Source: a virus (lineage: Duplodnaviria; Caudoviricetes). Taken from it: a DNA stretch of 64,000 nt. How positions within the stretch are numbered: the stretch's first letter is position 1; every line of letters begins with the position of its first letter. A model generated the notes under the pieces. That model saw nothing but the letters and a program-made list of their open reading frames with translations, was not told the DNA's origin and did no database searches. Positions 11,085-57,837 of the stretch are shown here, in pieces. The stretch lies in IMG/VR virus record IMGVR_UViG_3300037418_002116. One strand, given 5' to 3'. A program made the translations under genes and the position numbers.

Positions 11085-11900
11085 ATGGAAGCCGAAACGC
11101 TTATTGAGCCGGTCGATTATTTCGCAGATATAAAGAACAAGTTGATTGAAGCCAAGAAAGACGATCTGGCCAAGCAAGTCGGCGTTCTGCAATCACAAAT
11201 CCTTCTAGCGAAGGAAATCGGCCAAACTGCCTTCCTCCACAAATTGTCCTTTGCCTATAGGACAATCGAACGTGAAATTCAAGCCATCGCTGGCGGATGG
11301 AATCATTATGTCCTCGAAAAGGACATCAAAACTTTCATCGACAAGGTGACGCCAAAGCACTCCGTCAAAATCATCGAATTGGAACGGTTCCCACGGGCAA
11401 TTCCGGTCACTGTGCTGGAAAAAATTAAAGTCGCCCAAGCAGCGAAAATTTTCGATAATTTCGTTGTGGTATTCACCGATTTCACCGGCATGACGAATGA
11501 GACGGTGCAGACGGAAGCTGAAAAGGCCGTTGTCGCTCGAAACAAAGACCCGATTGTATTCGGCTATTTTACATCGCCGGAATCGGGCATCCGCTATGAC
11601 AAGTTCTATTTCATAGACGACTGGATCGATGAATATTGCGATCTTGACTATTCCAAGATGATCGAAAAAATGACCGCTCTTGGAATCCAAAATCCAGACA
11701 GAGAATTGGCCATCGATCCGATCATGGTTTCCAACATCGTGGAATCGGTCATGAACGATATGATTGAAAAGGCCAAGCCACGTTGGGACAGAGACAATGG
11801 TGGAGTGACCGTTGTGGAGCGTCCGGTTGCACAGAAGGTTTCATTCTTTCAGAAGGTGAAAAACTTCATCGTTGAGAACGGCAAAATTGGTGCTGACTGA
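11085..11900 (+). CDS. Phage hypothetical protein
   Basis: 271-aa ORF with AAGGA SD; no function recognised. Confidence 0.8.
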   Translation: MEAETLIEPVDYFADIKNKLIEAKKDDLAKQVGVLQSQILLAKEIGQTAFLHKLSFAYRTIEREIQAIAGGWNHYVLEKDIKTFIDKVTPKHSVKIIELERFPRAIPVTVLEKIKVAQAAKIFDNFVVVFTDFTGMTNETVQTEAEKAVVARNKDPIVFGYFTSPESGIRYDKFYFIDDWIDEYCDLDYSKMIEKMTALGIQNPDRELAIDPIMVSNIVESVMNDMIEKAKPRWDRDNGGVTVVERPVAQKVSFFQKVKNFIVENGKIGAD

Positions 11901-12394
11901 TGGCTGACAATCTCCCTAGCGAAATCGATCTTACATTGGGTCGGGAATTTTCAACGGATTTCCACGACAAATTTGAATCCGTGCGCCGGTATATCAATTT
12001 CGTCAAGGATGGCGGCGAATTTTGGGAATTCAACAACACCAGATTTCGTTCTTTGACACTAGAAGCCATCTATGGGGATTTTACGCCTCACCCGTGGACA
12101 GAGACAATTTTTCAGAAAGACATATGGAAAGCCGAGGAAGATCAAAACCAATGGCTTTCCACCTACAAAAAATTCTTTGGTTCTTTGCCAGCGTTAGCGC
12201 CGGGAGAGATGGCGGTCGAAGAAATCTATCATTACGAATTGTATGATGGAAACAATTGTGAATATTGCGATCGTCATATTGACTTGTTAAGAAAAAGCAA
12301 GTATCATGGAATGTGTAATTTCTGTTCAGAAGCAGAAGACTATAGACGAGTCGGCTTCTTTGCGGAAGCAGTGTCGGAATTTCCGCTGGAATAG
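11900..12394 (+). CDS. Hypothetical protein with a CxxC...CxxC zinc motif
   Basis: CEYCD...CNFC near the C-terminus. Confidence 0.7.
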   Translation: MADNLPSEIDLTLGREFSTDFHDKFESVRRYINFVKDGGEFWEFNNTRFRSLTLEAIYGDFTPHPWTETIFQKDIWKAEEDQNQWLSTYKKFFGSLPALAPGEMAVEEIYHYELYDGNNCEYCDRHIDLLRKSKYHGMCNFCSEAEDYRRVGFFAEAVSEFPLE

Positions 12395-34239: not shown

Positions 34240-35097
34240 TTACCATTTGAAATCGGTGTTTCTTTTGACGAATGGAGAAATTTCAGAGAAATCTACAACG
34301 CCATCAGCTTCATCAGTGAGAAGCTTGTTGTCCGCTTGTTTGTCCGTATCTTCAACCTGAACGTCTTCATCAATAATCGTGGCTTGGTCTGTATCGTCTT
34401 CCAATTTGATGGAATCGTCATCTTCCGTGGTCATTGGAGAACGCATAAGATCGCCAGAGAACAAATCTTCGATTGAATCGATTTCCGTGTCACCGGTATC
34501 AAGTTTTTCGTGACTGTATTCGAACAATTCACAGAACAATTCGTATGTCTGCAATGAACCACCTTGATAAAAAATGGCGTCGTGCTGTACGAATTTGATT
34601 TCGAAAAGACGCTGGAATGTGGATACCCAGATTAGATCGCCTTCACGGGGACGGTCATAAGGGATATAGTATCCTTCGATATTGCCTTCTTCCATCAAAA
34701 TGCCATTCAATTGGCCGGGCATGTAGCGATTGGTAACCTCTTGCTCCATCGTGTCATCATTTTCCGACATCAGATGTTCCAATCGAACTTCCTCAAAACG
34801 CTTGCGAGATATAGAGAGATGCAATTCATCTTTGATTTGCACATCGAATTTCGACATGAATCGAGCGCCGTCGAATCCTTCCGTATTGTTCGGATAAGCT
34901 TCGATCATCACGGCATCATTGAAGGAATTGACGGTCGATTCCCCGAAAAGATCGTCCAAATTCACGGAAGTACGTGGCAAATAATTTACCCAGAAACCCA
35001 TATTTTTGATAGCACCTATGGTGAGGTCTTCAAACAACTTTTGGGTTGGACCAAAGATGTAGTTGTTAATATATCTATTGGGTGAAAGTGAAGCCAT
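34240..35097 (-). CDS. gp14: Neck protein
   Basis: YLPRT, DELHLSISRKRF, PREGDLI, LFEIKFVQH, CELFEYS. Confidence 0.93.
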   Translation of the reverse strand: MASLSPNRYINNYIFGPTQKLFEDLTIGAIKNMGFWVNYLPRTSVNLDDLFGESTVNSFNDAVMIEAYPNNTEGFDGARFMSKFDVQIKDELHLSISRKRFEEVRLEHLMSENDDTMEQEVTNRYMPGQLNGILMEEGNIEGYYIPYDRPREGDLIWVSTFQRLFEIKFVQHDAIFYQGGSLQTYELFCELFEYSHEKLDTGDTEIDSIEDLFSGDLMRSPMTTEDDDSIKLEDDTDQATIIDEDVQVEDTDKQADNKLLTDEADGVVDFSEISPFVKRNTDFKW

Positions 35098-35100
35098 CTA

Positions 35101-38100
35101 TCATCTCTTTATGAATTTATTCAAGTATTTATCATATGAAAAATTATTGTCATCGTTCGTGGTATTTCCTATAACACCAAGTGTTGTATTAGAATTTTTC
35201 GTATATCCGGGCACTTTGATACCTTTTGTAAATGTTCGCAAGTAATCATCGTAACTAAGTCTGTTACTCTGGACATATCTCGCAATAGCGATCACTGTAT
35301 CATTTTGTTCGATGCAAACTAGAACGCCTTCAAGTTCGGCATGTAGTCCGAATGCATCTACAAGATCGTTCTCTTCTGCTATATTTGCAAAAGCTTGAAT
35401 TCTTAGCGAGGCTGTATCTTCATCGTTATCATCATCTTCAACGATAGAAGCCGAACCACTAATGCTTAGTGTAGAAGTTCCGTCGATATTGTCATTATCT
35501 TCTACAAGATCGCCAAAAGCCCGAATAGAAATTGCGGTTGATGAAGATACGTTATCATCATTTTCAATTGCTGAAAGCGCCGCTTGAATTATCAGACGAG
35601 TAGCGGATACGAGTCCGTCATCCGCTTCGCCAATAGAAGCACTACCATGTACAGCGATGGCCGATGCAGACGATTCCGTGTCTGAACCTTCGGTGATCGA
35701 GGCCGAAGCCTTAATTGCGATAGCGCCAGTCGCAGAAACAGTATCATTGGCTTCTGCAATCGAGGCAGAAGTTTTAATCGAAATAACACTACTTGCCGAT
35801 ACTGTGTCACCAGATTCTTGAAGGTTGCTGGTGCCTTTGATAAGCAGTGTTGCGGGTGACGATACGGCATCATCAGCTTCTACAATACCCGCTACATCTT
35901 TGATAAGCAGTGTTGCGGTTGACGATACGGTATCGTCACCTTCCGTGACATTCAATATGCCTAGTACTATACCAGCCGCCGCAGCCAATGTGTCATCGGC
36001 TTCTGTAATCGATGCCGTGGCTTTAAGCGGCAATGTAGCAACAGAAGTGAACGTGTCATTGGCTTCTGTAATATTCGCAGTTGCTACCTGTGGCGGCACA
36101 AAGCCTACAGCCGAAACCGTGTCATTGGCTTCTGTAATCGAGGCAGAAGCTTTCAGAGTGATTGTCGAAGCAGAAGAAACCGTATCGTTTGCTTCTGTAA
36201 TATTTACAGTTGCAACCTGTGGCGGAACAAAACCTACAGCGGAAACCGTGTCATCCGCTTCGCTCAATGCAGCTACGGCATGAATTGGTGATGCGCCTGT
36301 AGAAGAAACAGAATCGTTTGCTTCTGTGGATGCTACAGCACCAGCAATCGCAACTTTAGTTGCAGAACCTAGACTATCGTCCGCTTCTGTTACGGATGAA
36401 GTAGCTTTGATAGGCAAAGCTGCTGTAGAAGAAACCGTATCGTTTGCTTCTGTTATAGCAGCATCCGCCGAACGACCACTAGTCAATACAGATGTTGCAC
36501 TTAGCGTATCACTATCTTCTGTGATAGAAGCATTGGCTTTGATTGCAATTGTAGCAGTAGATGAAGAAGTGTCGTTTGCTTCTGTTATGACAGGTGTAGA
36601 ACTGTCATAAGCAACAATGTTGTAGTCATTGTAGTCAAGAGCGGTAACAAACTTGCCGTCCGCAGAACAACTAACTTCCCAATACTGTCCGTTGTATGTA
36701 TTTGGTGGCGTTAGAGCAGTGAATGTTGTAAAGTGGTCTGTAGACTGATATACTGCTGCAAACGTACCATCACCACCTGACAAATACTGGATACTGCCAT
36801 CATCTGACAACGATAGGTAATGAAGTTCAGATGGGCTGGTTAACGTCTTTGACGTCCATGTCGTACCACCATTTGTCGAATAAAGGTAGGTATCGGCTAC
36901 TGGTGTTGTTGCTGAACGTGCTGTAACTGCAATTGTTTGACCATCGACAGAGCAATCGATGTCTTTGTACGCTGAATTTCCGTTAGGACCGGGTGAAGGA
37001 ATCGTTGTTACTTGAGTCCAACTGACACCAGAATTCGTGCTTTTCCATAGTCCTGTCAAAGTTAGGCCATAGATTACCGAGCCATCGCTTGAAAGTGCAA
37101 AATCAACCCATGTTCTAACACCAGCCGCAGTTAGTGACGCCCATGTTGAGCCCTGATTGTATGAGATTACAGGATGTGAACCAGTCGTTCCATTACGTTC
37201 ACCAGCAATGATGACAGAGCCATCATTCGACATTCCTACAGCTTGCCAGTTGCCTGTCAATTCTGCGAAAGTCGATGCGCCTGTGGCAGACCACGTTACG
37301 CCTCTATTGGTTGATTTATAAATGTCCCCGAAAGACAGCGGTGCAATTAGAATGCTACCATCGTAGTTGCTACCGAATAGGTAGGACTGTCCTGATAGAT
37401 TAGTCTGTTGAGTCCATGAAACACCCTTATCAGAAGATGTCCAAGGGAAATCAAACGCACCAGCGATGATCAGTGAACCGTCTGGCACAACATAAGCGCT
37501 GCCAGTCCAATTGAAACTGTTATCGCCGGAATTGGTTACAAAGAAGCCTTTTGGCTTGTTAGCAACGATAGAGATTGTAGCAGTAGAGCTTAGCGTATCG
37601 TTTGCCTCAGATACGCTTTCATTTGCCTTAATTGAAATCGTTGCAGTTGATGACAGTGTATCGTCTGCATCTGATGTGACACCATTTGCTTTAATCGGAA
37701 TCGTTGCTGTAGATGAAACAGTGTCATTGGCTTCTGTGATAGACGCCGCTGCCTTTATGGCCAGTGTCGATGGAGAGACAACAGTGTCACCGGCTTCTGT
37801 GATCGATGCAGAAGCTTTTAGAGCAATTGTGGATGTCGAAGCAACGGTATCATTGGCTTCCGTAATCGAGGCTGTACCTTTGATCGAAATTGTGGAAGTC
37901 GAAGCAACAGTGTCACCGGCTTCTGATATCGCACCAGAAGCCGTAATAGAAATTGTGGAAGCCGACGATACAGTATCGTTCGCTTCGGTGATAGAGGCAG
38001 TTCCGGCAATCGGCGTTACTTGGATAACTGCCGTCACAGTGTCATTTGCTTCTGTTATAGAAGCATTAGCCTTGATCGCAATCGTAGCAGTAGATGAAGT

Positions 38101-40353
38101 GGCGTCGTCGGCTTCTACAATGAATTGACCGGAATTTCCAACCGAGAAATACAGATCACTTGGAGTTCCAGTATAAGAAGTACCGCCAGTATAGATGCTC
38201 GCTGAACCATTAGGATAAGTGCCATTAAATTGACCGGAAGCGAAATAATAGTTTACTGTGTCAGTTGCACCACTTCTGCTAACCAACAGCATATACGTTG
38301 TACCTGCGTTGGCGGTAATCGGAGAAGGAAAGGTAAACGTGGTGTTGGTAGCAGTAATTGTTAATGTGGAGCCAGCAACAGTCGATGACGTCGCTAATAC
38401 GGTCGCACCAGTAGCATCACGCAACTCAACGTAGAGGTTGTCTGTAGGACTACCTTGCTTGGCCAATCTAACAACACAGCTATCAACAACTAATTGTTTA
38501 GATGGTGTGAAAGTCTGCGCTGCACCAATATTGCTAGCATTATAACCAACAAGCAATGTAGTATCGATCGTTGTTGGAAAATTGTATTCGCCGCTTGAAG
38601 ACGATGCTGTATTCGGGTTGCTATTGTGGCTTGCTGATGATAGTGTGTCATCAGCTTCCGTAGGAGTTGAAGTAGCTTTAATCGCAATTGTTGTTGCTGA
38701 TGCAACTGTATCACTGTCTTCTGTAATAGAAGAAGTGCCAGAAATACCAAGTGTTCGAATCGTATATTCATTGTATTTCAATGTTCCATTGTCATTCATA
38801 ATGTATGGAAATACGATTGAATTGCCAGATTGATAAACGGCTCTTGCGTCGTGAGAGATAATCGAAACACTGGTTGTTCCGGTGTAGTCGAGTGTACCAG
38901 AACCCCAAGTTGCGCCGTTATCTGTAGAAGTCTTTACAGAAAGTGTTGTCGATCCAAGACCATAGTATGCATACACATTTCCGCTATCGTTGAATAGTCT
39001 GATAGAACCGCTGTTAGTACCGCCAGTTGATGTTCCGGTAACTGTTGGCGTCAGTGCAGAGTCAAAACGCATACCTTGTGGGGTAATTACCGTCTGGTTT
39101 ACCGATGTACCATGAGCAAATACTATTCTCTGGTTTGTACTTAGGTATGATGTCGATGTACAGACAGGCCCCGGAGTAGAATATAGGAAAGTAGTTGCCG
39201 TTGATTGTGTTTGTAGGACGTTTGCACTAGACAACGCTCTTTGTGCTGCCGTTCCCGACGCCGCAGAGAAAATAAAATGAATAATGTCACTGGTGCCCAG
39301 AATAGCATCAAATACAATACCATCGAATGCGCCACCAGCATCAACCGCCGTGTTGGTCGTCCAAACGCCACCCGTCGAACGACGTGAGTACACGGTTCTT
39401 GAGTAAGAGTTGCTCATGCTGACAACACGAGCGCCTTGGTGCAAGACTACGACTGAACCATCGGAACGAACGATGATCGAATTGGTGTATGCGTTGATTA
39501 GTGCGTTAGTTTGTGTATTCAGCGCAGACGTAATTGTTTCGACAGTACCGAATGTATCTGACGATATATCGAAAGTAAGATATTTGAAGTTTACAGATGT
39601 TGTCGCACCATCTGTTATACACAAGTGGATGATGTTACCTACTTGGAATCCAGAAATCCACTGAATTCCGGTAGTGAAGCCAGTTTTTGTAGTGACACTT
39701 GACCAAGAGGAAGTTGGTGCTGTTGATTTATATGCCTGCAATGTTGTTGCAGTCGTACCATCGACTGCAAAGAAATAGAATGCAGAAGAACCGGCAGTAC
39801 TTATCTTGAATAGCGCATCCGTGGACGTTCCCTGACTGTTCCCCACACCACTGGCGGTGCTGTAAGTGTGGAGTTCACCCCCTGTGTAAACATTATCTGT
39901 ACTCCAATCAAGGAGATAATAATTGCTTGCATCCGCCGCTCCTGAACGGGTGATCACGATGTAATAGATCGTTGAAGCCGATAATGCATATGGAGTACTG
40001 AATGTGAAATTCACCCATGCATAAGAGGTTGTTAGTGATGAACCGGCAACCGTTGCAGATGTAGCCAGTACTGTGGTTCCATCAGATGCAACAATGAGTG
40101 CAGTAAGATTATCGGTAGGGCTTCCGAATTTTTTTAGAGAGAAAGAGGCAGTTGCGATAGTAACAGCGCTGCCTGTAGTGATTTTTTGGGCCATGCCTAT
40201 ACGGCTAGTGGCATCACCCCAAAGGTTGTTAGCATCGCTCAAACCCGCTGAATTAAGGGATTGGGCATATGCAGTACCCGGTGGCGTTCCTAGAAACGGA
40301 CCTACAGGATTTACAGTTGAGCTTATACCAGTAATTGTTACAGGTAGAGTCAT
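35101..40353 (-). CDS. Large Ser/Thr-rich virion fibre protein with about 30 21-aa repeats, two related beta domains and a BNR-like region
   Basis: SITEANDTVSSTATIAIKA-type repeats; duplicated GSPTDNL...VLATS.TVAGS.LT domain; S.D.G..W repeats. Confidence 0.85.
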   Translation of the reverse strand: MTLPVTITGISSTVNPVGPFLGTPPGTAYAQSLNSAGLSDANNLWGDATSRIGMAQKITTGSAVTIATASFSLKKFGSPTDNLTALIVASDGTTVLATSATVAGSSLTTSYAWVNFTFSTPYALSASTIYYIVITRSGAADASNYYLLDWSTDNVYTGGELHTYSTASGVGNSQGTSTDALFKISTAGSSAFYFFAVDGTTATTLQAYKSTAPTSSWSSVTTKTGFTTGIQWISGFQVGNIIHLCITDGATTSVNFKYLTFDISSDTFGTVETITSALNTQTNALINAYTNSIIVRSDGSVVVLHQGARVVSMSNSYSRTVYSRRSTGGVWTTNTAVDAGGAFDGIVFDAILGTSDIIHFIFSAASGTAAQRALSSANVLQTQSTATTFLYSTPGPVCTSTSYLSTNQRIVFAHGTSVNQTVITPQGMRFDSALTPTVTGTSTGGTNSGSIRLFNDSGNVYAYYGLGSTTLSVKTSTDNGATWGSGTLDYTGTTSVSIISHDARAVYQSGNSIVFPYIMNDNGTLKYNEYTIRTLGISGTSSITEDSDTVASATTIAIKATSTPTEADDTLSSASHNSNPNTASSSSGEYNFPTTIDTTLLVGYNASNIGAAQTFTPSKQLVVDSCVVRLAKQGSPTDNLYVELRDATGATVLATSSTVAGSTLTITATNTTFTFPSPITANAGTTYMLLVSRSGATDTVNYYFASGQFNGTYPNGSASIYTGGTSYTGTPSDLYFSVGNSGQFIVEADDATSSTATIAIKANASITEANDTVTAVIQVTPIAGTASITEANDTVSSASTISITASGAISEAGDTVASTSTISIKGTASITEANDTVASTSTIALKASASITEAGDTVVSPSTLAIKAAASITEANDTVSSTATIPIKANGVTSDADDTLSSTATISIKANESVSEANDTLSSTATISIVANKPKGFFVTNSGDNSFNWTGSAYVVPDGSLIIAGAFDFPWTSSDKGVSWTQQTNLSGQSYLFGSNYDGSILIAPLSFGDIYKSTNRGVTWSATGASTFAELTGNWQAVGMSNDGSVIIAGERNGTTGSHPVISYNQGSTWASLTAAGVRTWVDFALSSDGSVIYGLTLTGLWKSTNSGVSWTQVTTIPSPGPNGNSAYKDIDCSVDGQTIAVTARSATTPVADTYLYSTNGGTTWTSKTLTSPSELHYLSLSDDGSIQYLSGGDGTFAAVYQSTDHFTTFTALTPPNTYNGQYWEVSCSADGKFVTALDYNDYNIVAYDSSTPVITEANDTSSSTATIAIKANASITEDSDTLSATSVLTSGRSADAAITEANDTVSSTAALPIKATSSVTEADDSLGSATKVAIAGAVASTEANDSVSSTGASPIHAVAALSEADDTVSAVGFVPPQVATVNITEANDTVSSASTITLKASASITEANDTVSAVGFVPPQVATANITEANDTFTSVATLPLKATASITEADDTLAAAAGIVLGILNVTEGDDTVSSTATLLIKDVAGIVEADDAVSSPATLLIKGTSNLQESGDTVSASSVISIKTSASIAEANDTVSATGAIAIKASASITEGSDTESSASAIAVHGSASIGEADDGLVSATRLIIQAALSAIENDDNVSSSTAISIRAFGDLVEDNDNIDGTSTLSISGSASIVEDDDNDEDTASLRIQAFANIAEENDLVDAFGLHAELEGVLVCIEQNDTVIAIARYVQSNRLSYDDYLRTFTKGIKVPGYTKNSNTTLGVIGNTTNDDNNFSYDKYLNKFIKR
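35240..38750 (-). repeat. Tandem 63-bp (21-aa) repeat arrays inside the large fibre gene
   Basis: Recurrent plus-strand GGCTTCTGT(A/T/G)AT; about 32 units counted by eye in three blocks. Confidence 0.85.
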
Positions 40354-40931
40354 TAGATCACCACATCAGAACCACGTCTGATCACCAAATCCGGTGAAAG
40401 AAGCGCTTTCCAATCCTCTATTGACTTCATGTTTAATGGTGAACCTTCTGAACTAGGTGTAATACATGACACCCAATGAACAACTTTTGGTGCCAGAAAT
40501 CTTAAATTTTTTGCGAGTTCCAAGCATTCGTCATCCGACAAATTTGGCATCACGTCTTCCGTGATCGCTATATCGATCTTACCTCCCGCAAAATTCTCGA
40601 TATTTTCACGACTTTTCTCGGATAGAGAATCTTCATTCAGAATTTGAATTTTTGCATGGATATGTTTGTTTTCATGAATCCATGTTGAAATATCTGTGGC
40701 GGTCACATTCAAACCTTGGGCAATCCAGTCTTCCGCAGACCAGCCAAAACCAGCCCCAATCAAAGCTATTCTTTGAGTAGGTTGCAAATCCAATGCATTT
40801 TTCAATATTAAATGATCATTTCCGTAATATTGTGTTTTTGCCGAACGAACGTACCCAACGACAACACCGTCAACAAGACAACTATACAGTGAAGACCAAG
40901 TAGTTTCTAGGTTGCTATCTACCAAAGGCAC
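40353..40931 (-). CDS. Class I SAM-dependent methyltransferase-like protein
   Basis: IALIGAGFG followed by VTATDIS; CTAAATA promoter upstream. Confidence 0.65.
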   Translation of the reverse strand: MPLVDSNLETTWSSLYSCLVDGVVVGYVRSAKTQYYGNDHLILKNALDLQPTQRIALIGAGFGWSAEDWIAQGLNVTATDISTWIHENKHIHAKIQILNEDSLSEKSRENIENFAGGKIDIAITEDVMPNLSDDECLELAKNLRFLAPKVVHWVSCITPSSEGSPLNMKSIEDWKALLSPDLVIRRGSDVVI

Positions 40932-40988
40932 CGATACAAATTCCCCAAATATAACAATACTATTTAGGCTATACTGTCTTCTAAAAAC

Positions 40989-41021
40989 AAAAAGCCCCCA
41001 CCGTGAGGTAAGGGGCTTTTT
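40989..41021. terminator. Terminator (bidirectional form)
   Basis: AAAAAGCCCC...GGGGCTTTTT. Confidence 0.8.
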
Positions 41022-41044
41022 GCTTTATGAAAGGATTATGCAGT

Positions 41045-41449
41045 TTAAGCGTTACCGGCTGTCAATGTGAACGAAGTAACCGAGAATGCCTGTCCCGATG
41101 CGAACGAAGTGTTGTCAACGGTCATGTCGCCACCGCCGCCCGTAGCAGTAACGGTTCCCTGTGCATGACAAGTACCGCCAGACGAGAAGATACGGAAGTG
41201 ACCGGCTGTACCGGTCGCATCGGCAGATGTATCCTGCCATGTGCCAGACAATGCCTTTGTTCCGCCAGATGCAGCGGCCATCCAGTCAGAAGGCAAAGTA
41301 CATGTTGCAAGAACAGTACCGGAGTTAGCAGCGGCGCATGAAGCAGGAGCAGCACCAGATTTAATCAAAAGAGTTGGTGCAGTTCCAATAGTCGATTCGA
41401 CAACATCTAGACGTGCGTTACGAACTGCCACACTATATTGAAGGGTCAT
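41045..41449 (-). CDS. Small beta-rich virion protein (134 aa), probable fibre or decoration subunit
   Basis: RNARLD...LPSDWMAAAS...ATGTAGHFRI...GGGGDMTVDNT; strong SD and own terminator. Confidence 0.75.
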   Translation of the reverse strand: MTLQYSVAVRNARLDVVESTIGTAPTLLIKSGAAPASCAAANSGTVLATCTLPSDWMAAASGGTKALSGTWQDTSADATGTAGHFRIFSSGGTCHAQGTVTATGGGGDMTVDNTSFASGQAFSVTSFTLTAGNA

Positions 41450-41496
41450 AAGTTATATTTCCTCTGAAAGTTAGATTTATATGTTATTTATAATAT

Positions 41497-42249
41497 TTAC
41501 AAACCCGGTCCAAACATATCTGTCAAAGGAATTGAGAACGAACGAATCATTTCTTCTTCTAATTCTTGGATTTCCTTTTCAGCTTCATCAAAAATTTCTT
41601 GACCGGACAATTCTGCACCAGACAAAATTTTAATGGACTTGTATAGTTTTAGGTTTGCACCCCATTGCCTTTTGACAAGCGCCGTGGCATAACGGAGAAG
41701 CCACTTATCAGACCACACTTCCGGATATTCATTCGGATCAAGAACCTGATAGGCGTCAAAAATAATATATGTTCCGACCGCATATTTCGTCCAATCCGTG
41801 TCGATGAAAATCTTATTCATCTTACGATTGAAGCGAATGCCGGGGGTGGAATTAAAGAAATCGTTGAACATATTGATGTGTCTGATCGCCAAATAGTATG
41901 GAACGATAGATGTGCTGGTTAGATTGTAGAAATCATTCAGCATCACTTGGTATGTTGTCGAGAACAGAGCCGAGGCAGAACCAATCAAACCAGAACCGTC
42001 CACTACCTTTGTGATACCGGTAATGGAACTATCAATTTGAATATATTGGTTTGCAATATCGTCGGCGGTGATTTGATGTTTGTAGAAAATTTGGGTCATA
42101 CCATCGAAATGGTATTCCTGATAATACGAAAGAGCATCATCGATACGATCTTCGACTTGTTCGGCATCCACGGCGATTTCAATAACCGGAAAGCCGAGAC
42201 GGCGCATGATGTATTCCTTAAACGCCTTTCTTGTAGTTGGTAACGCCAT
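41497..42249 (-). CDS. gp13: Neck protein
   Basis: YIMRRLGFPVIEIAVDAEQVEDRIDDAL..Y.EYHFDG; ALVKRQWGANL. Confidence 0.95.
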   Translation of the reverse strand: MALPTTRKAFKEYIMRRLGFPVIEIAVDAEQVEDRIDDALSYYQEYHFDGMTQIFYKHQITADDIANQYIQIDSSITGITKVVDGSGLIGSASALFSTTYQVMLNDFYNLTSTSIVPYYLAIRHINMFNDFFNSTPGIRFNRKMNKIFIDTDWTKYAVGTYIIFDAYQVLDPNEYPEVWSDKWLLRYATALVKRQWGANLKLYKSIKILSGAELSGQEIFDEAEKEIQELEEEMIRSFSIPLTDMFGPGL

Positions 42250-42636: not shown

Positions 42637-43245
42637 TTATCCAGATACGGGCCAGAAAGAGCTATCTTTGTAATTGACCGGCACTGGTGAAGTTTCCTTG
42701 ATTGCTCGTGCCGCAAAGATACATTTTGTTTCCCATGATGCCGCCGCCTGCCCAAAGGCAAAACATGTTTGAGCATCCATGGTTGTTAGAGTGTTGTCAT
42801 CGGCAATCCAAACAAAGTCAGATGAGCCGCCATGCCAACGATAGTTACCAACGGGGGAACCGGATGCTACGGCAAAACCGGCCAATGTAGCCGCTCCGAT
42901 GATCCGAGCCTTAGATTCATTATCCATGGCGTAAGATTTGCCATTAAATACAAACCCATTAGCGATACGATTGTCTCTTTCTTCGTTCACTTCGTCAGAC
43001 GACACAACCTTTGAAATGGTCGCCCACACGTACTTAGGAACACCGGATGTGACAACGATGGAAACAGTAGTTCCAATTTTTCCGTCCGGAATAGGATCGG
43101 CAGGGAGAATTTCTTTTAGAGTGTACGTGCCATTGTCCCATCCGGCACCGGCACCTTGGATGACATCGTTGCCAATGGTGAAAGAACTACCAGCTAACAC
43201 TTCTTTAACCACGCTGGAATTAGATTTCTTTATCAATGCGAGCAT
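42637..43245 (-). CDS. DUF4376-like tail-fibre-associated protein
   Basis: NEERDNRIANGF...WIADDNT...FAARAIKE. Confidence 0.7.
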   Translation of the reverse strand: MLALIKKSNSSVVKEVLAGSSFTIGNDVIQGAGAGWDNGTYTLKEILPADPIPDGKIGTTVSIVVTSGVPKYVWATISKVVSSDEVNEERDNRIANGFVFNGKSYAMDNESKARIIGAATLAGFAVASGSPVGNYRWHGGSSDFVWIADDNTLTTMDAQTCFAFGQAAASWETKCIFAARAIKETSPVPVNYKDSSFWPVSG

Positions 43246-43886
43246 TTTAGTCCTTCGTAAATTTCAATATCTTTTTCGTAGTATTTATTCACAGCTTTAA
43301 GTGCTGCATCATCGTAAAACCAAGATAAGTAATCTTTCGTAAGACGATTTTTTGGTAGGGATTTATTCTTCCACATCAGCGGAACTTTAATTTGAATGTT
43401 ATGTGTTTCACTGAATTCATCGATGTGTTTTTGTATATCGTCAAATAACCACCATTCGCCTATATTCTGGCCCTTATAGGTAAGAAATGAAGATTGAAGC
43501 TGGTTTTGCCATTTTCTATCTGGAAAATACCCATGCTTCGTCACTATTTTTTTGAAATCCTCCGCAGTTAAAGATTTGTTAAACCCCTGCTTTTGTCGAT
43601 AGAGAAAAAGTGAAACCACTCGTTCTAAAGGATTTCTGATGATGCCGATGAATCTATCTGTTTCATGGGCGAGTCGGTGTTTTATGACATACTCGACATC
43701 CATGTGAGAATGATCGGCATGTTTCGGTGACATGTTTTGTGAATGTGGAATATTAAGTTCATCATAGTAATTCGAGAACGAATCTTCCGGCTGAACTACG
43801 TTATCGATGAAGAAACGTCTTACAGACGTTGAAGCATTCTTTGGAATGTTGATAAAATTGAAGCCGAAACGCTTAATACTAATCAT
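43233..43886 (-). CDS. Sulfotransferase-like protein
   Basis: PAPS motifs FINIPKNASTSV and IIRNPLERVVS. Confidence 0.85.
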   Translation of the reverse strand: MISIKRFGFNFINIPKNASTSVRRFFIDNVVQPEDSFSNYYDELNIPHSQNMSPKHADHSHMDVEYVIKHRLAHETDRFIGIIRNPLERVVSLFLYRQKQGFNKSLTAEDFKKIVTKHGYFPDRKWQNQLQSSFLTYKGQNIGEWWLFDDIQKHIDEFSETHNIQIKVPLMWKNKSLPKNRLTKDYLSWFYDDAALKAVNKYYEKDIEIYEGLKCSH

Positions 43887-44445
43887 TTAAAAGAAAGGAA
43901 TTTAGAGAAAGACGAATGCCACCTGTCGATTTGTAGGAGTGCCATGTTAGGCCAGTTTTGCCAGCGAACACCATCATGCGGTTTGGCTTCCATTCGATTT
44001 GCTTGACGAAATTTTTTTCTTGGTCATAGATCAAGGTTCCCTGTCCTTCCTGTGGATAGAGATAGGTAACAGCGGAAATGACTTTATTTTCAGCTTCGTC
44101 ATGAATGGGGTGTTCTGATGCATCTAGACACAGGATAGCCTCACCATAGAGAGTAAGGTTTGAATAGTTTCGTTTATCCGCAAAATATTCGAGGAAATTT
44201 TTTGTGTCTCTGCTTTCTAACAAATTTTTGGTATTCGGAAATTTTGAATTTTTGTATAGATTGCTTTTCGTAATGAAAATTTTGTCCGCTGTTTTGGTGA
44301 TGAATTCGCTTCGATCATTTCGAAGCACGGCGAAAATTTCCATAACGGCCAAAGCCATCTGCCCTTCGGTATAATAATCATCAATAACAATATGCGGCCA
44401 TGGCTTATCGAAACGATACAATTCGTTGCTCAATTTTTTCTTCAA
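43879..44445 (-). CDS. 2OG-Fe(II) oxygenase
   Basis: HxD (IHDE), distal WHS and RxS; WPHIVIDDY start pattern. Confidence 0.8.
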   Translation of the reverse strand: MKKKLSNELYRFDKPWPHIVIDDYYTEGQMALAVMEIFAVLRNDRSEFITKTADKIFITKSNLYKNSKFPNTKNLLESRDTKNFLEYFADKRNYSNLTLYGEAILCLDASEHPIHDEAENKVISAVTYLYPQEGQGTLIYDQEKNFVKQIEWKPNRMMVFAGKTGLTWHSYKSTGGIRLSLNSFLLND

Positions 44446-45235
44446 ATCCTTCCTTGGAAACGTCGATGCAGAGTTTATGTGTGAACCATGATAGGAATCG
44501 ACTTAAATCATCCTGATTGACCGGTTCGATATCCTCTAGCTGATATGCACTGTCAATTTTCGGGACAATTTCCGAAAATGCCATCGTGTCGTAGGTAGCA
44601 CATGGTTTGCCTTTCAGCATGGCATTGAGGCTCACGCTGGACCATGAACTAAACACTTTGTCGGCATTGTCCAACAAATGATCAAGGTTACAATTTGCAT
44701 CAGCAAAAATTATGTAGTCAGAATTATGTATACAAATTTCGGTCAATGGATGCTGCTTGAAAACAGTATATACTTTTTGTTCTTCCGCATATTTCATCGC
44801 ATCAAGCATATGATCATATTCAGGTCCAATATTGTCTTGCAATAAAAAGAGATTATATTTGTCTGGTAAATCTATAATGCGAGAGCCTTGACTATATTTT
44901 GTTCCAAAAATTTTTGTGACATCGTGGTCTATGTCGCATTCCTTCCATTGATGGAGGAATGGATTAACTTTATCGAGATACATTTTATTTGGTGTGAATA
45001 CATAAAGGTCTGTCTTTGGCGAACCAAAACGCCATGTCAGCGTTTGCTCAAAATTCATGTTATTGTAAAGTTCTGCAAAAATGCAGTTTCTTAAGTCATG
45101 CTTTTCGAGGATTGCGTCAACCAAATTTGCCACTTTTAGCATGTTCGGAAACATGTAATGGGTTTGTGGTAATCCCTTTACACCATTCATCCATTGCAAG
45201 CAGAGGTTACGGTTTGATCGAAAACATGAATTCAT
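44405..45235 (-). CDS. Capsule-synthesis (KpsS/KpsC-like) glycosyltransferase-like protein
   Basis: FKQHP and SSVSLNAMLKGKPC motifs; likely true start near 45190. Confidence 0.6.
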   Translation of the reverse strand: MNSCFRSNRNLCLQWMNGVKGLPQTHYMFPNMLKVANLVDAILEKHDLRNCIFAELYNNMNFEQTLTWRFGSPKTDLYVFTPNKMYLDKVNPFLHQWKECDIDHDVTKIFGTKYSQGSRIIDLPDKYNLFLLQDNIGPEYDHMLDAMKYAEEQKVYTVFKQHPLTEICIHNSDYIIFADANCNLDHLLDNADKVFSSWSSVSLNAMLKGKPCATYDTMAFSEIVPKIDSAYQLEDIEPVNQDDLSRFLSWFTHKLCIDVSKEGFEEKIEQRIVSFR

Positions 45236-45911
45236 CGTCCTCGCCTACATGTTTGGCTATTAATTTAGCATCTAAAGAAACTATGTTTTTCTTTCGAACA
45301 TAAATTACAGGACATTCGTTGGATAGAGCATTCTTTATTGTTTCTACAAACCAGTCTTCACGATCCGGTCTGCAAACCAGACACACCATGGAACTGTCGA
45401 ATGCAAATTTTGTTGCATCTTTAATCTCTACTGGAAATTCATAACTTTGATATGGCATAATATCGAGACAAGTTACGTCGAACCCGGCATCTGAAAGGGC
45501 CTTTCCTGTGGAGCCGTTACCAGCGCCGCAATCGATGACATGTTTGCCACCATGAAGTTTTTTCATTTTGTTTATGAATGTCTTATTCGGTCGAAAAAAT
45601 TGTTCGGAAGGGAGTAATTCCGGAACTGCTTTTAAAATTTCAGCGAATTGTTCATCGGTTAAAGTTCTCTCACTATAAGAAGCTACAATGTCACTTTCTC
45701 TGCTTTTCTTGTATGCGGCAATTACTTTCTCTGTCCATACAGTGTTATAAGCCTCTATAATTGCTTGTTTGACTTCTTCAATCACATAGTCATTTGGATT
45801 AGTGAGAACCCATTCATTGTTGTAAACATGGGCTGGCGGAATCTCGAATGTCAATCCGGGCAATTCAAGATGGAGAATCTTGAAGGTTCCTACGTATCTT
45901 ACGTTTCTCAC
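45207..45911 (-). CDS. Methyltransferase-domain protein
   Basis: VIDCGAGNG...VTCLDI. Confidence 0.7.
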   Translation of the reverse strand: MRNVRYVGTFKILHLELPGLTFEIPPAHVYNNEWVLTNPNDYVIEEVKQAIIEAYNTVWTEKVIAAYKKSRESDIVASYSERTLTDEQFAEILKAVPELLPSEQFFRPNKTFINKMKKLHGGKHVIDCGAGNGSTGKALSDAGFDVTCLDIMPYQSYEFPVEIKDATKFAFDSSMVCLVCRPDREDWFVETIKNALSNECPVIYVRKKNIVSLDAKLIAKHVGEDDEFMFSIKP

Positions 45912-46777
45912 GGTTCTACAAATCTCATACTCTGTACAAAATTGCTGTAGAAATAAAAGGTAGTCGTGGTGCCTCCACCACCGTGACCACCGCCACCACC
46001 CGTTGTTATAGATGTATAAGAAGTGTCAGTAGTAAAAGTTCCAGCAGCATCCATTGTATTCAATGCAATTTGTCTAGAATTGCCACCATATGTATTGTTT
46101 GTTTCTAGAATCCTAGTATTTGTTGGTCCTCCATGTGAAATTGAAGGAATACCAGAATCAGCTATACTCAATCCGCCTTTGATGAATACTAAATCATTTT
46201 GTGCTACTGATAGACTTGTTGTACTATGAGATGACGAAGTGCTTTGTCCACCAGCATAGAATGCATTAGATACACCACTCCATCTACCGGGAAGAACATA
46301 GACCATTTGTGAGTTCGTATCAGATGTGCTACTTGCTTTATTGAAGGTTGCAGCGACGGACGTTAAGTTTCCAAAGCCAATTGGCACTTGAAATTGAAGT
46401 AACTTGAAAGCAGTACCAACACCGGTCGTTTTGCTGTACAATAATGTTTCATCTGTTGCTGAATAAGCCCCACTATTAACGTTCACAACAGTAGTTCCGG
46501 GTGTGCTACCTTCATTCAAGACCAACAATGTGGTCCATCGACTCTGTAAACTGATTGCGGCTTGGGGATATGTTAAAGTGCCGGAAACAGACGTTGCGGT
46601 TGCAAAGGTAGAATCAAAAGCTTCATTAAACGGACCAACAGTTGTATTGGTTTCAAACCCCTGATTAACAGAAGTTTTAGAAATCATCGCATTTCTCGAT
46701 GAAATAGTTTTCAGTGCTGAAATTACATCAGATACACCAACTAGAACTACTGATGGAATAGACGCTGGAAAAAACAC
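45908..46777 (-). CDS. Ser/Thr/Gly-rich virion protein, probable fibre tip or adhesin
   Basis: Coupled to the tail-fibre gene; composition. Confidence 0.55.
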   Translation of the reverse strand: MFFPASIPSVVLVGVSDVISALKTISSRNAMISKTSVNQGFETNTTVGPFNEAFDSTFATATSVSGTLTYPQAAISLQSRWTTLLVLNEGSTPGTTVVNVNSGAYSATDETLLYSKTTGVGTAFKLLQFQVPIGFGNLTSVAATFNKASSTSDTNSQMVYVLPGRWSGVSNAFYAGGQSTSSSHSTTSLSVAQNDLVFIKGGLSIADSGIPSISHGGPTNTRILETNNTYGGNSRQIALNTMDAAGTFTTDTSYTSITTGGGGGHGGGGTTTTFYFYSNFVQSMRFVEP

Positions 46778-55746: not shown

Positions 55747-57837
55747 TTAGGTTCTCGGGAAGGCAGCGGTTGGTACTGTGATAGAGCCGTCTGTGTCATA
55801 GCGACATATACCTTTGGTGATACGAATTTCATCAAGCCAACCATTGTAGATAGCAGAGCTAAGTGAACGACCGATTTCGAGAGGGCCTGTTGAGTTGAAT
55901 ATGGCACTATTCGCAGGCGTCGCACTTGCAACTAATGTGCCATCACGCCATAGTCTAATCTTGCCGCTGGAATTTTTACTGATGGCGATAAAGTGCCAGT
56001 TATCAACGCTGATGGAAGGGGCCGCTCCGGAACCAAGAGATTGGAAATTACTTCCGTCCGATGACCAAGCAAATGACGGCCTTTGAAGGTTGTAATCAAT
56101 ATACCAAGCCCATCCGCCAGTGGTCTGGCCCATTACATATGGAATGGAACTACCAGTGTCATGTGGCATCATCCAAAATTCGATAGTGTATTGATCGGAG
56201 TTTGATGTAGACAATTGCCAATCTGCACTATCTGGAATCGAAATATAGTCACCAGACCCATCAAAAGCAGCGGATGAAACACCGAATTTAAATTGTGTTG
56301 TGTCCAGTTTTGCATTGCCATTAAATGTTAATGGTGTATGGCCAGCCAAACTTTCATCTGTGGTGCTTGTCGCACCATTAGTTCCGTTAAATCCTGCAAG
56401 GAATACCACATTAGAGAAATATGGGTCTGATCCGCTGAGAGCGGCAGATGCTACAGTATCAACAGATTCTGTTATAGATGAAGTACCTTTCAGTGCCAAC
56501 TTAGCGGCTGATAAAATAGTGTCATTAGCTTCTGTAACAAATGTTGATGAATGGTGTTGAGAAGTTGACAATTGATAATGCAAGCCAGCGGTGTTGCCAT
56601 ACTGATATTCTGCCGAAAGAATTAAAACGGTATTGTTCACCACGTATTGCGGGAAATAATACGTGTTTGCAGAATGTGTTGTGTCCAATATCTTTATTGG
56701 AGTCCAACTCGACATAGTGAAAGAAGGAACGTTTGATCTAAACACAATAGTTTTAGACAAATCGGCAAGAGAAAAATTACCAAATTGTTGGAATACTGGA
56801 ATAGTATTCCAAAACCCAATTGTATTCTGCATTTCGGCTTGTTGCGTACCAGCTTGTGTTACCCAAGTGATGGCCGCACAATTACTTGTTGCATTAATCG
56901 CCGTTTCGTTTAGAATGAGTTCATAGGAAATGGTGATCTTTGAAATATCACCTACATTTTCTAGATTTGACAGCAACGAAAGATTGATTTCAGAAAAATC
57001 GGCAGATGCAAGCATATCCACCGCACCGAACAATTTCGTTCCGGCAGGGTGCACTAATTGATTCGCAATGGATTCATATTCTGATATGGCGTGTGAGGAA
57101 CGAATTTGGTATGAGTATTCCTGATAGAAAAAATTGTCTTCAAGATATTTGTTTGACGACAAAAATCCGTCTGTTCCGATCCATCCGCCCGGATATGTGA
57201 CTAAATCAGTAACAAAGCCGAGTTGTTCTCCGGTATTATCGTCTAGAATACCTTCATTGATTTCAAATGTGCCAAATATGTTGTTGATATAAAATTCATT
57301 TGTTTGAACTTCGTTAACAACATATGAAATGAACTTGTCTTTTCTTGCGGTGGCATTGGATGATGCACCACGAATAACAACAACATCTTCAATCTTGCTC
57401 AAAGGAACATTGAGATTCAATTTCAATGAACGCTCGATAACCCACTTACCGTCAGAAGCTCTTAGAATGTCTTTGCCGGGATAATAATATGAAACGTTTT
57501 CGTCGCCGTATAGGATACGAAACAGCATATTGTATGCTTTTTCCGTACCACGGGCACGATAGAAATCAACGATATTCTTCAATAGAAGACGATCATCAAC
57601 CAATGTAACTGGAATAGACTTCATGAATTCATTTCGCATGAATTGGAAGTACTTATCCGGTATTAGATCGGCATCTTTATAGTCAGCAAGTTTCCGAGAA
57701 ACCTGTATTGGATTTTCGAATTGTTGAAGCCATTCATAGTATACTTTAATGAAATTGACCAATTCTTCGCCATCCCGATTCCAGAAATCGGGCACCTGTG
57801 ACTTGACAAAAATGGAGATAGAATTGGACTGTGCCAT
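55747..57837 (-). CDS. gp7: Baseplate wedge initiator-like protein fused to fibre repeats and a LamG/ConA-like domain
   Basis: FYRARGTEKAY..LFRILY, ILRASDGKW, YQEYSYQI, VHPAGTKLFG; C-terminal T.EFW...W.F.A...GWLDEIRITKG. Confidence 0.75.
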   Translation of the reverse strand: MAQSNSISIFVKSQVPDFWNRDGEELVNFIKVYYEWLQQFENPIQVSRKLADYKDADLIPDKYFQFMRNEFMKSIPVTLVDDRLLLKNIVDFYRARGTEKAYNMLFRILYGDENVSYYYPGKDILRASDGKWVIERSLKLNLNVPLSKIEDVVVIRGASSNATARKDKFISYVVNEVQTNEFYINNIFGTFEINEGILDDNTGEQLGFVTDLVTYPGGWIGTDGFLSSNKYLEDNFFYQEYSYQIRSSHAISEYESIANQLVHPAGTKLFGAVDMLASADFSEINLSLLSNLENVGDISKITISYELILNETAINATSNCAAITWVTQAGTQQAEMQNTIGFWNTIPVFQQFGNFSLADLSKTIVFRSNVPSFTMSSWTPIKILDTTHSANTYYFPQYVVNNTVLILSAEYQYGNTAGLHYQLSTSQHHSSTFVTEANDTILSAAKLALKGTSSITESVDTVASAALSGSDPYFSNVVFLAGFNGTNGATSTTDESLAGHTPLTFNGNAKLDTTQFKFGVSSAAFDGSGDYISIPDSADWQLSTSNSDQYTIEFWMMPHDTGSSIPYVMGQTTGGWAWYIDYNLQRPSFAWSSDGSNFQSLGSGAAPSISVDNWHFIAISKNSSGKIRLWRDGTLVASATPANSAIFNSTGPLEIGRSLSSAIYNGWLDEIRITKGICRYDTDGSITVPTAAFPRT

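Follow-up and report, generated by a model that had tools for sequence, protein, structure and literature searches.

Fibres built from small dimeric proteins threaded on an extended polypeptide are so far represented by a handful of cryo-electron microscopy (cryo-EM) structures of phages, which hold 2 to 11 dimers and give no rule for the sequence of the rope. In these fibres the dimers wrap the rope "such as beads on a string"; running in the grooves of the monomers, the rope completes their incomplete sandwiches (PMC12609058). Eleven dimers are held by augmented β-sheets on the fibre-dock domain of gp39 (residues 243-468) in phage A1002, where the rope spans about 300 Å and provides about 20.5 residues and 27 Å per dimer (PMC13730344); five dimers are strung on a separately encoded rope in phage GP4 (PMC12609058, PMC13730344); and 36 homodimers form a "garland" contacting the tail fibres in phage 7-7-1, the rope not being modelled (PMC12796354). 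Here, a locus with the marks of such a fibre is described in the IMG/VR virus record IMGVR_UViG_3300037418_002116 (Duplodnaviria; Caudoviricetes), of which a stretch of 64,000 nucleotides (nt), hereafter the window, was analysed. It encodes a repeat protein of 1750 amino acids (aa), which is most probably the single-chain rope of a beads-on-a-string virion fibre, and a 134-aa protein, its bead, since the small protein is homologous to proven beads and the genes of the two families are almost absolutely linked.

The bead, the probable rope and the solved fibres

The bead is classed as a virion structural protein by PHROGs (phrog_3758, E 2.3e-35) and belongs to a family of 2678 clusters at 50% identity (E up to 0.001). 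It is unusually conserved, with about 80% identity to Sinorhizobium prophage proteins. An AlphaFold 2 (AF2) model made from a 65-row alignment (predicted local distance difference test score, pLDDT, 96.5) contains a helix at residues 7-21 followed by a β-sandwich of 7 strands, in agreement with the published description of the whisker monomer (PMC12609058). Beads of chain-like fibres are small proteins, of about 105-170 aa, that share such a helix and an incomplete sandwich. The family profile matches the A1002 fibre protein gp40 (44nx_B, E 1.4e-10) and the garland protein of phage 7-7-1 (9rkv_A, E 2.7e-5), and the model superposes best on the latter (Z 14.6, template modelling score 0.78, root-mean-square deviation 2.1 over 131 residues), followed by the Bas63 whisker (9mt4_K, Z 10.7), the Sf14 neck chain (9c39_K, Z 10.6) and Fiber I of GP4 (8jou_a, Z 6.8). 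The GP4 bead did not match significantly in sequence (E 0.009 when seven proteins were searched). In phages Seuss and 7-7-1, homologues of the bead carry the annotation virion structural protein, and homologues have been seen in the virion cryo-EM maps of A1002, 7-7-1, Bas63 and Sf14.

The bead gene is equipped with a Shine-Dalgarno site, with an intrinsic terminator right after its stop codon and with its own T4-type late promoter (TATAAATA, a motif that occurs 10 times in the window where 1.8 occurrences would be expected). A promoter and terminator of its own fit a subunit needed in large excess, and these signals agree with a first, model-made reading of the DNA (the initial annotation), which had called the gene highly expressed-looking. 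Bead proteins that occur naturally as tandem duplications (P0124, P0144, P0180) fit the dimer as the working unit. One of the tandem pairs carries a signal peptide, and in P0180 degenerate AITEGPS units stand immediately before the pair. Bead domains are also found fused, at either end, to β-helix, deacetylase-like and other large domains (P0208, P0211, P0167, P0218).

The rope gene lies 692 nt from the bead gene, with a methyltransferase-like gene between them. About 32 repeat units in three blocks had been noted in its product, and a unit profile, searched against the six-frame translation of the window, indeed found 32 (best unit E 1.5e-10), in blocks of 2, 9 and 21. A motif-free self-similarity scan gave a period of 21 aa with a score of 3.07 for this frame, against a median of -0.27 across the 57 frames of the window of at least 150 aa, and no other frame exceeded 0.36 except two shadow frames overlapping the rope gene. 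The unit consensus is near a-S-I-T-E-A-x-D-T-V-S-S-T-a-T-I-a-I-K-A, in which Glu and Asp show no or almost no variation among the aligned units and Thr almost none where scored. At the DNA level the units have diverged (62-81% matches), and the array is therefore neither a recent expansion nor an assembly artefact.

Globular domains alternate with the repeat blocks, so that the parts run, from N- to C-terminus, as a lectin-like domain, a BNR-like region, 2 units, a second lectin-like domain, 9 units, a sortilin/BNR propeller, 21 units and a C-terminal tail. The two GSPTDNL domains of the initial annotation are true paralogues (38% identical, E 2e-21); a language-model look-up (score 0.85) offers, as a lead only, that they are of the lectin-like/DUF4082 kind. 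The BNR-like region that it had also reported is upheld by residues 930-1260, which reach 37.2 bits against a Pfam cut-off of 33 for Sortilin-Vps10 and match BNR families too, and residues 200-540 may be BNR-like as well, again on a look-up lead to BNR families with a score of 0.85. The parts of the rope and the bead gene, with the basis for each in brackets, are as follows.

35101..40353, minus strand: rope protein, 1750 aa (open frame, unit profile, self-similarity scan)
39790..40224, minus strand: GSPTDNL domain copy 1, aa 44-188 (38% identity to copy 2)
38734..39756, minus strand: BNR-like region, putative propeller, aa 200-540 (language-model look-up lead, 0.85; Asp-box-like motif visible)
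38599..38733, minus strand: repeat block 1, 2 units of 21 aa, aa 541-585 (unit profile)
38128..38553, minus strand: GSPTDNL domain copy 2, aa 601-742 (paralogy to copy 1)
37558..38127, minus strand: repeat block 2, 9 units, aa 743-932 (unit profile)
36595..37551, minus strand: Sortilin-Vps10/BNR β-propeller domain, aa 935-1253 (PF15902 above cut-off)
35251..36594, minus strand: repeat block 3, 21 units, aa 1254-1701 (unit profile)
35101..35250, minus strand: rope C-terminal tail, about 50-60 aa, candidate anchor (kept in relatives)
41045..41449, minus strand: bead protein, 134 aa (phrog_3758), N-terminal helix and β-sandwich (profile, AF2)
41485..41492, minus strand: T4-type late promoter TATAAATA, 36 nt upstream of the bead ATG (motif)
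40995..41014, minus strand: intrinsic-terminator-like hairpin and T-run, directly 3' of the bead gene (sequence)

The rope showed no detectable similarity to PDB chains, nothing relevant being returned by either a single-sequence or a profile search. Among isolate phages, a tblastn search with the rope returned Curvibacter phage P26059A as its sole match, and the nine-unit segment returned none, the probable cause being the low-complexity filter. The repeat motif, searched as a text string in the full-text literature, gave chance matches only.

Among the solved fibres, that of Pseudomonas podophage A1002 (PDB 44NX) shares several features with the locus. The A1002 bead is a sequence homologue, many dimers sit on one rope chain at about 20.5-24 rope residues per dimer (21 here), and a globular domain is placed at the far end of the rope. 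A1002 has 11 dimers, two bead paralogues (gp40 and gp41) and a rope in a split podovirus nozzle, whereas the window has 32 units in three blocks, spliced globular domains, one bead gene and a myovirus neck locus. The Felixounavirus collar-whisker of Bas63 and Sf14 (PDB 9MT4, 9C39) is likewise a myophage neck structure with the same bead fold and with dimers wrapping a rope, but it carries two dimers per rope, its beads are of about 107 aa and its rope is a short N-terminal extension of an immunoglobulin-like (Ig-like) collar; the rope of the window is 1750 aa long, with its units mostly C-terminal, and an Ig-like collar was not found. In Ralstonia podophage GP4 (Fiber I, PDB 8JOU), rope and bead (gp80) are separate genes in bead-then-rope order, as here, although that fibre holds five dimers and is a podovirus tail fibre docking on the capsid. 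The gene directly after gp80 in GP4 (locus L212, 8948-10354) codes for a virion-associated protein of 325 aa, in which a period of 20-22 aa is weakly present (score 1.14).

The closest solved fold is that of gp014 from Agrobacterium phage 7-7-1 (PDB 9RKV), which forms homodimers, and the host of this phage is an alphaproteobacterium, as the hosts of the relatives of the window phage appear to be. In 7-7-1 the beads form a garland on baseplate fibres with no rope modelled, whereas in the window the partner rope is evident from sequence. Phage 7-7-1 encodes two bead paralogues (locus L208, 1387-6740), the garland protein gp014 and gp012, which is closer to the family of the window (E 5.6e-19). 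A 21-aa period recurs just downstream, in gp010 with its GDWxYPxY units and, with APMADA units, at the C-terminus of gp009, and these two proteins may be the unresolved ropes of the garland. T4 fibritin (wac) is comparable as an accessory fibre gene beside the neck genes gp13 and gp14 of a T4-like phage. It is, however, a trimeric α-helical coiled coil with a foldon, whereas the rope is predicted to consist of all-β 21-aa hairpins and would depend on a second protein, and no fibritin family match was found in Pfam or PHROGs.

Genetic linkage of bead and rope genes

The association of the two families was approached from both sides. From the rope side, 119 IMG/VR loci were collected, blind to the bead, by a DNA pattern of two TEAxDT motifs 63 nt apart, and the count was restricted to the 58 in which 3 kb or more of sequence precedes the repeat gene. 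A bead-family gene was present upstream on the same strand at 57 of these 58 repeat loci, mostly within about 2.7 kb and at most 6.7 kb away. Redundancy does not explain this figure, since the beads of the 57 loci fall into 46 clusters at 90% identity and their ropes into 51.

From the bead side, 80 loci were found through the bead alone, 57 of them with at least 3 kb downstream. At 49 of the 57 bead loci, a motif-free scan detected a 20-22 aa period in a gene lying no more than 2.7 kb downstream, against a background of 7 in 793 upstream frames; of the eight loci that it missed, four are explained, three being positive with the profile and one having its rope upstream. A narrow TEAxDT detector was positive at only 25 of 53 bead loci, and the remaining loci use other 21-aa dialects, such as ATLSATGTLDIxG... 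or, in Caulobacter phage Seuss, AGMTDNIVGQVSIAASLSKTM. Ropes typically begin with a globular region that varies and is often LamG, continue with 9-19 units and end in a short tail. The persistence of a 20-22 aa period across such diverse dialects indicates that the conserved partner of the bead is the 21-aa periodicity itself. The initial annotation had proposed the co-occurrence of the two families across phages as a check and held that its idea would fall if the small protein were unlinked to the repeats; the linkage proved tight in both directions.

In Seuss (locus L002), gp039 (about 11177-11983), a hypothetical protein encoded 2.7 kb downstream of the bead gene gp033, consists of 21-aa AGMTDNIVGQVSIAASLSKTM units with a basic tail end. 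In Curvibacter phage P26059A (locus L003, 4980-7480), a distant bead gene (0005, 33% identity) is followed by a gene for a 309-aa protein and by a TEAxDT rope gene (0007); the module lies in the head module, between portal and prohead protease, and hence is not bound to one virion site.

Bead residue 5 differs with the dialect, being Tyr at TEAxDT loci (63/73) and Leu or Phe at other-dialect loci (31/42; p 4e-12). This position falls in the N-terminal strand that makes dimer contacts in Bas63. The co-variation was dropped as evidence of contact, because the classes were differently sampled and the sequences are related. A role of the small protein as a capsid decoration was likewise set aside, as its best structural and sequence matches are fibre beads and its occurrence is tightly linked to the rope.

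A proposed fibre and its alternatives

In the fibre proposed here, bead dimers would clamp round the rope, one dimer per 21-aa unit. Each unit would fold into a two-stranded hairpin with short strands, each of which would complete the open sandwich of one bead monomer. At roughly 27 Å per dimer, the 2, 9 and 21 units would build three rigid beaded segments of roughly 5, 25 and 57 nm, about 85 nm in total, which would space out the lectin-like and BNR-propeller domains, and these presumably bind host surface glycans. The initial annotation had suggested that each repeat donates β-strands to one small subunit, with about 30 subunits per chain, and that the length of the fibre follows from the number of repeats. 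The stringing of small subunits on the repeats is favoured by homology and synteny, while the ratio needs revision: since the beads are dimeric in every solved case and A1002 has 20.5-24 residues per dimer, two beads per unit, and thus about 64 rather than about 30 per rope chain, are likely by analogy.

Several points weigh against this reading. No solved structure has a TEAxDT-type rope and the rope has no PDB similarity, so that the bead-rope contact is transferred from relatives with different rope sequences, and bead-to-unit binding in this phage would hold by analogy with them. The closest solved relative, the 7-7-1 garland, was modelled in contact with tail fibres, with no rope resolved (PMC12796354). 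Known ropes are anchored through an Ig-like collar (Bas63, GP4) or a nozzle platform (A1002), neither of which was recognised here by Pfam or PHROGs, and the units of a baseplate protein described below were not found in the gp7-like proteins of the two closest relatives. AF2, finally, predicts hairpins at regular spacing when the rope is modelled by itself, though with low confidence, and the repeats may thus have a β-structure of their own. A complex prediction with four bead copies and a three-unit rope segment, made without controls, gave run scores of 0.00, 0.73 and 0.00 and carries no weight either way.

The hairpins predicted for the rope alone lead to the best-placed alternative, which we nonetheless consider unlikely, namely that the repeats fold by themselves, as a hairpin stack, a solenoid or a trimeric β-structure, and that the bead binds elsewhere, for example as a garland at the fibre tips. 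When ten units (aa 1466-1680) were modelled alone by AF2 from a 30-row alignment, a β-hairpin with two strands per unit was obtained, and such regular strand-turn-strand units would suit self-folding, as would the 7-7-1 dimers that contact tail fibres with no rope resolved (PMC12796354). However, the mean pLDDT was 57 (five models, 31-57) and the predicted template modelling score 0.53, compared with a pLDDT of 96.5 for the bead, and confidence dipped at each turn after the acidic motif. Autonomous folding of the repeats had been named at the outset as an observation that would speak against small subunits on the repeats, and no confident fold was obtained for them alone; the low confidence fits a rope that requires a partner without proving it. 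Self-folding would also make it hard to explain why bead genes are linked almost absolutely to genes with a 21-aa period across very different phages, beads sit on ropes in the A1002, Bas63 and GP4 structures, and 7-7-1 itself has the 21-aa-period proteins gp010 and gp009 encoded next to its bead genes.

Rather less probable is that the bead serves as a virion adaptor, binding the rope at a single site or very few, for instance in the C-terminal tail or a globular domain, while the repeats are a mere spacer. The family members fused once to enzymes or β-helix domains (P0208, P0211, P0167 and P0218) would be in keeping with such an adaptor, but it is the periodicity that is conserved beside bead genes while N-terminal domains and tails vary, the promoter and terminator of the bead gene suggest a large excess, and the solved relatives bind periodically along the rope. 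That the bead is a non-structural assembly chaperone of the repeat fibre, absent from the virion, is very improbable and was rejected on homology and virion annotations, for although small genes beside fibre genes often encode chaperones, its homologues are annotated as virion structural in Seuss and 7-7-1 and are present in the virion maps of A1002, 7-7-1, Bas63 and Sf14.

Setting among the neck genes, baseplate units and implications

The minus strand of the window holds the late structural module of a T4-like myophage, in the order gp25, gp6, gp7-like, gp8, a 1946-aa structural protein, an enzyme cassette, gp13, the bead and rope genes, gp14, gp15 and small terminase. The nearest relatives of its gp6 are those of Ochrobactrum phage vB_OspM_OC (43% identity) and pelagimyophages, and a nucleotide search gave no match between the region and isolate phages. 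The enzyme cassette (42637-46777, minus strand) includes a sulfotransferase-like gene (PHROG match) besides several genes without an assignment. The features outside the bead-rope pair are as follows.

34240..35097, minus strand: gp14-like neck protein, downstream flank (context)
40353..40931, minus strand: 192-aa class-I methyltransferase-like protein (Methyltransf_11 E 0.03, under cut-off)
41497..42249, minus strand: gp13-like neck protein, upstream flank (context)
55747..57837, minus strand: gp7-like protein (context)
56428..56544, minus strand: two in-phase 21-aa units, aa 432-470, in the gp7-like baseplate wedge protein (unit profile)
55819..56262, minus strand: Laminin_G_3 (LamG) domain of the gp7-like protein, aa 526-673, distal to the units (E 5.8e-18)

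The gene order gp13, bead, methyltransferase-like gene, rope and gp14 is conserved in relatives, whose ropes have 38-40 units in 1960-2658 aa. The N-terminus of the rope is 41-66% identical in these relatives while the neck flank genes reach 91-95%, a pattern typical of a host-recognition fibre. In the closest relative (L004, 11075-18249; gp13 95% identical), the rope is present as two frames of 1327 and 677 aa, a split that is either real or an assembly frameshift. The C-terminal tail is common to three ropes (relatives L006, L004b) and is the best candidate for anchoring the fibre, probably near the neck, a location suggested by gene position only. The 192-aa methyltransferase-like gene keeps its place in four T4-like relatives (L004, L005, L006 and L057) with 57-63% identity; its product gave nothing over the cut-off in Pfam and PDB searches, and it might modify the bead or the rope.

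A second occurrence of the units had been reported in the gp7-like protein, just before a LamG domain, and this holds: the units span aa 434-467, the first scores E 7.8e-4 window-wide, the second, which is weak, follows in phase exactly 21 aa on, and the LamG domain is clearly recognised. The two closest relatives share residues 1-424 of the gp7-like protein and then continue with different domains that lack the units. The units and LamG of the window are thus a swapped-in cassette specific to this phage. By the proposed mechanism, the two units would recruit two bead dimers and thereby form a short stalk for the baseplate LamG. A wider proposal, to which we give somewhat less than an even chance, is that the 21-aa unit acts as a portable tag for docking and that the bead is a universal coat protein, any virion protein with n units acquiring a rigid beaded stalk of programmable length. 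This kit would be used twice in the present phage, for a neck fibre of about 64 beads per chain, in which glycan-binding domains interrupt the bead blocks, and for the two-unit stalk of the gp7-like protein.

The architecture of the fibre is already published and is not a new principle. What is added to the literature consulted is a recognisable TEAxDT family of rope repeats with its near-obligate bead pairing, the number of docking units in one rope (32, against 2-11 dimers in the solved cases), the placing of globular binding domains between bead blocks and the presence of a docking tag in a baseplate protein. A 21-aa period beside a bead gene, here in the TEAxDT form, provides a signature for annotating such fibres in uncultured phages and prophages by the thousand. 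If one dimer per unit is true, the length and valency of these fibres would be readable from sequence and possibly open to engineering. If the portable-tag proposal is also true, bead-rope fibres would be no peculiarity of a few phages but a modular system common among myo-, sipho- and podoviruses, with 2678 bead clusters at 50% identity.

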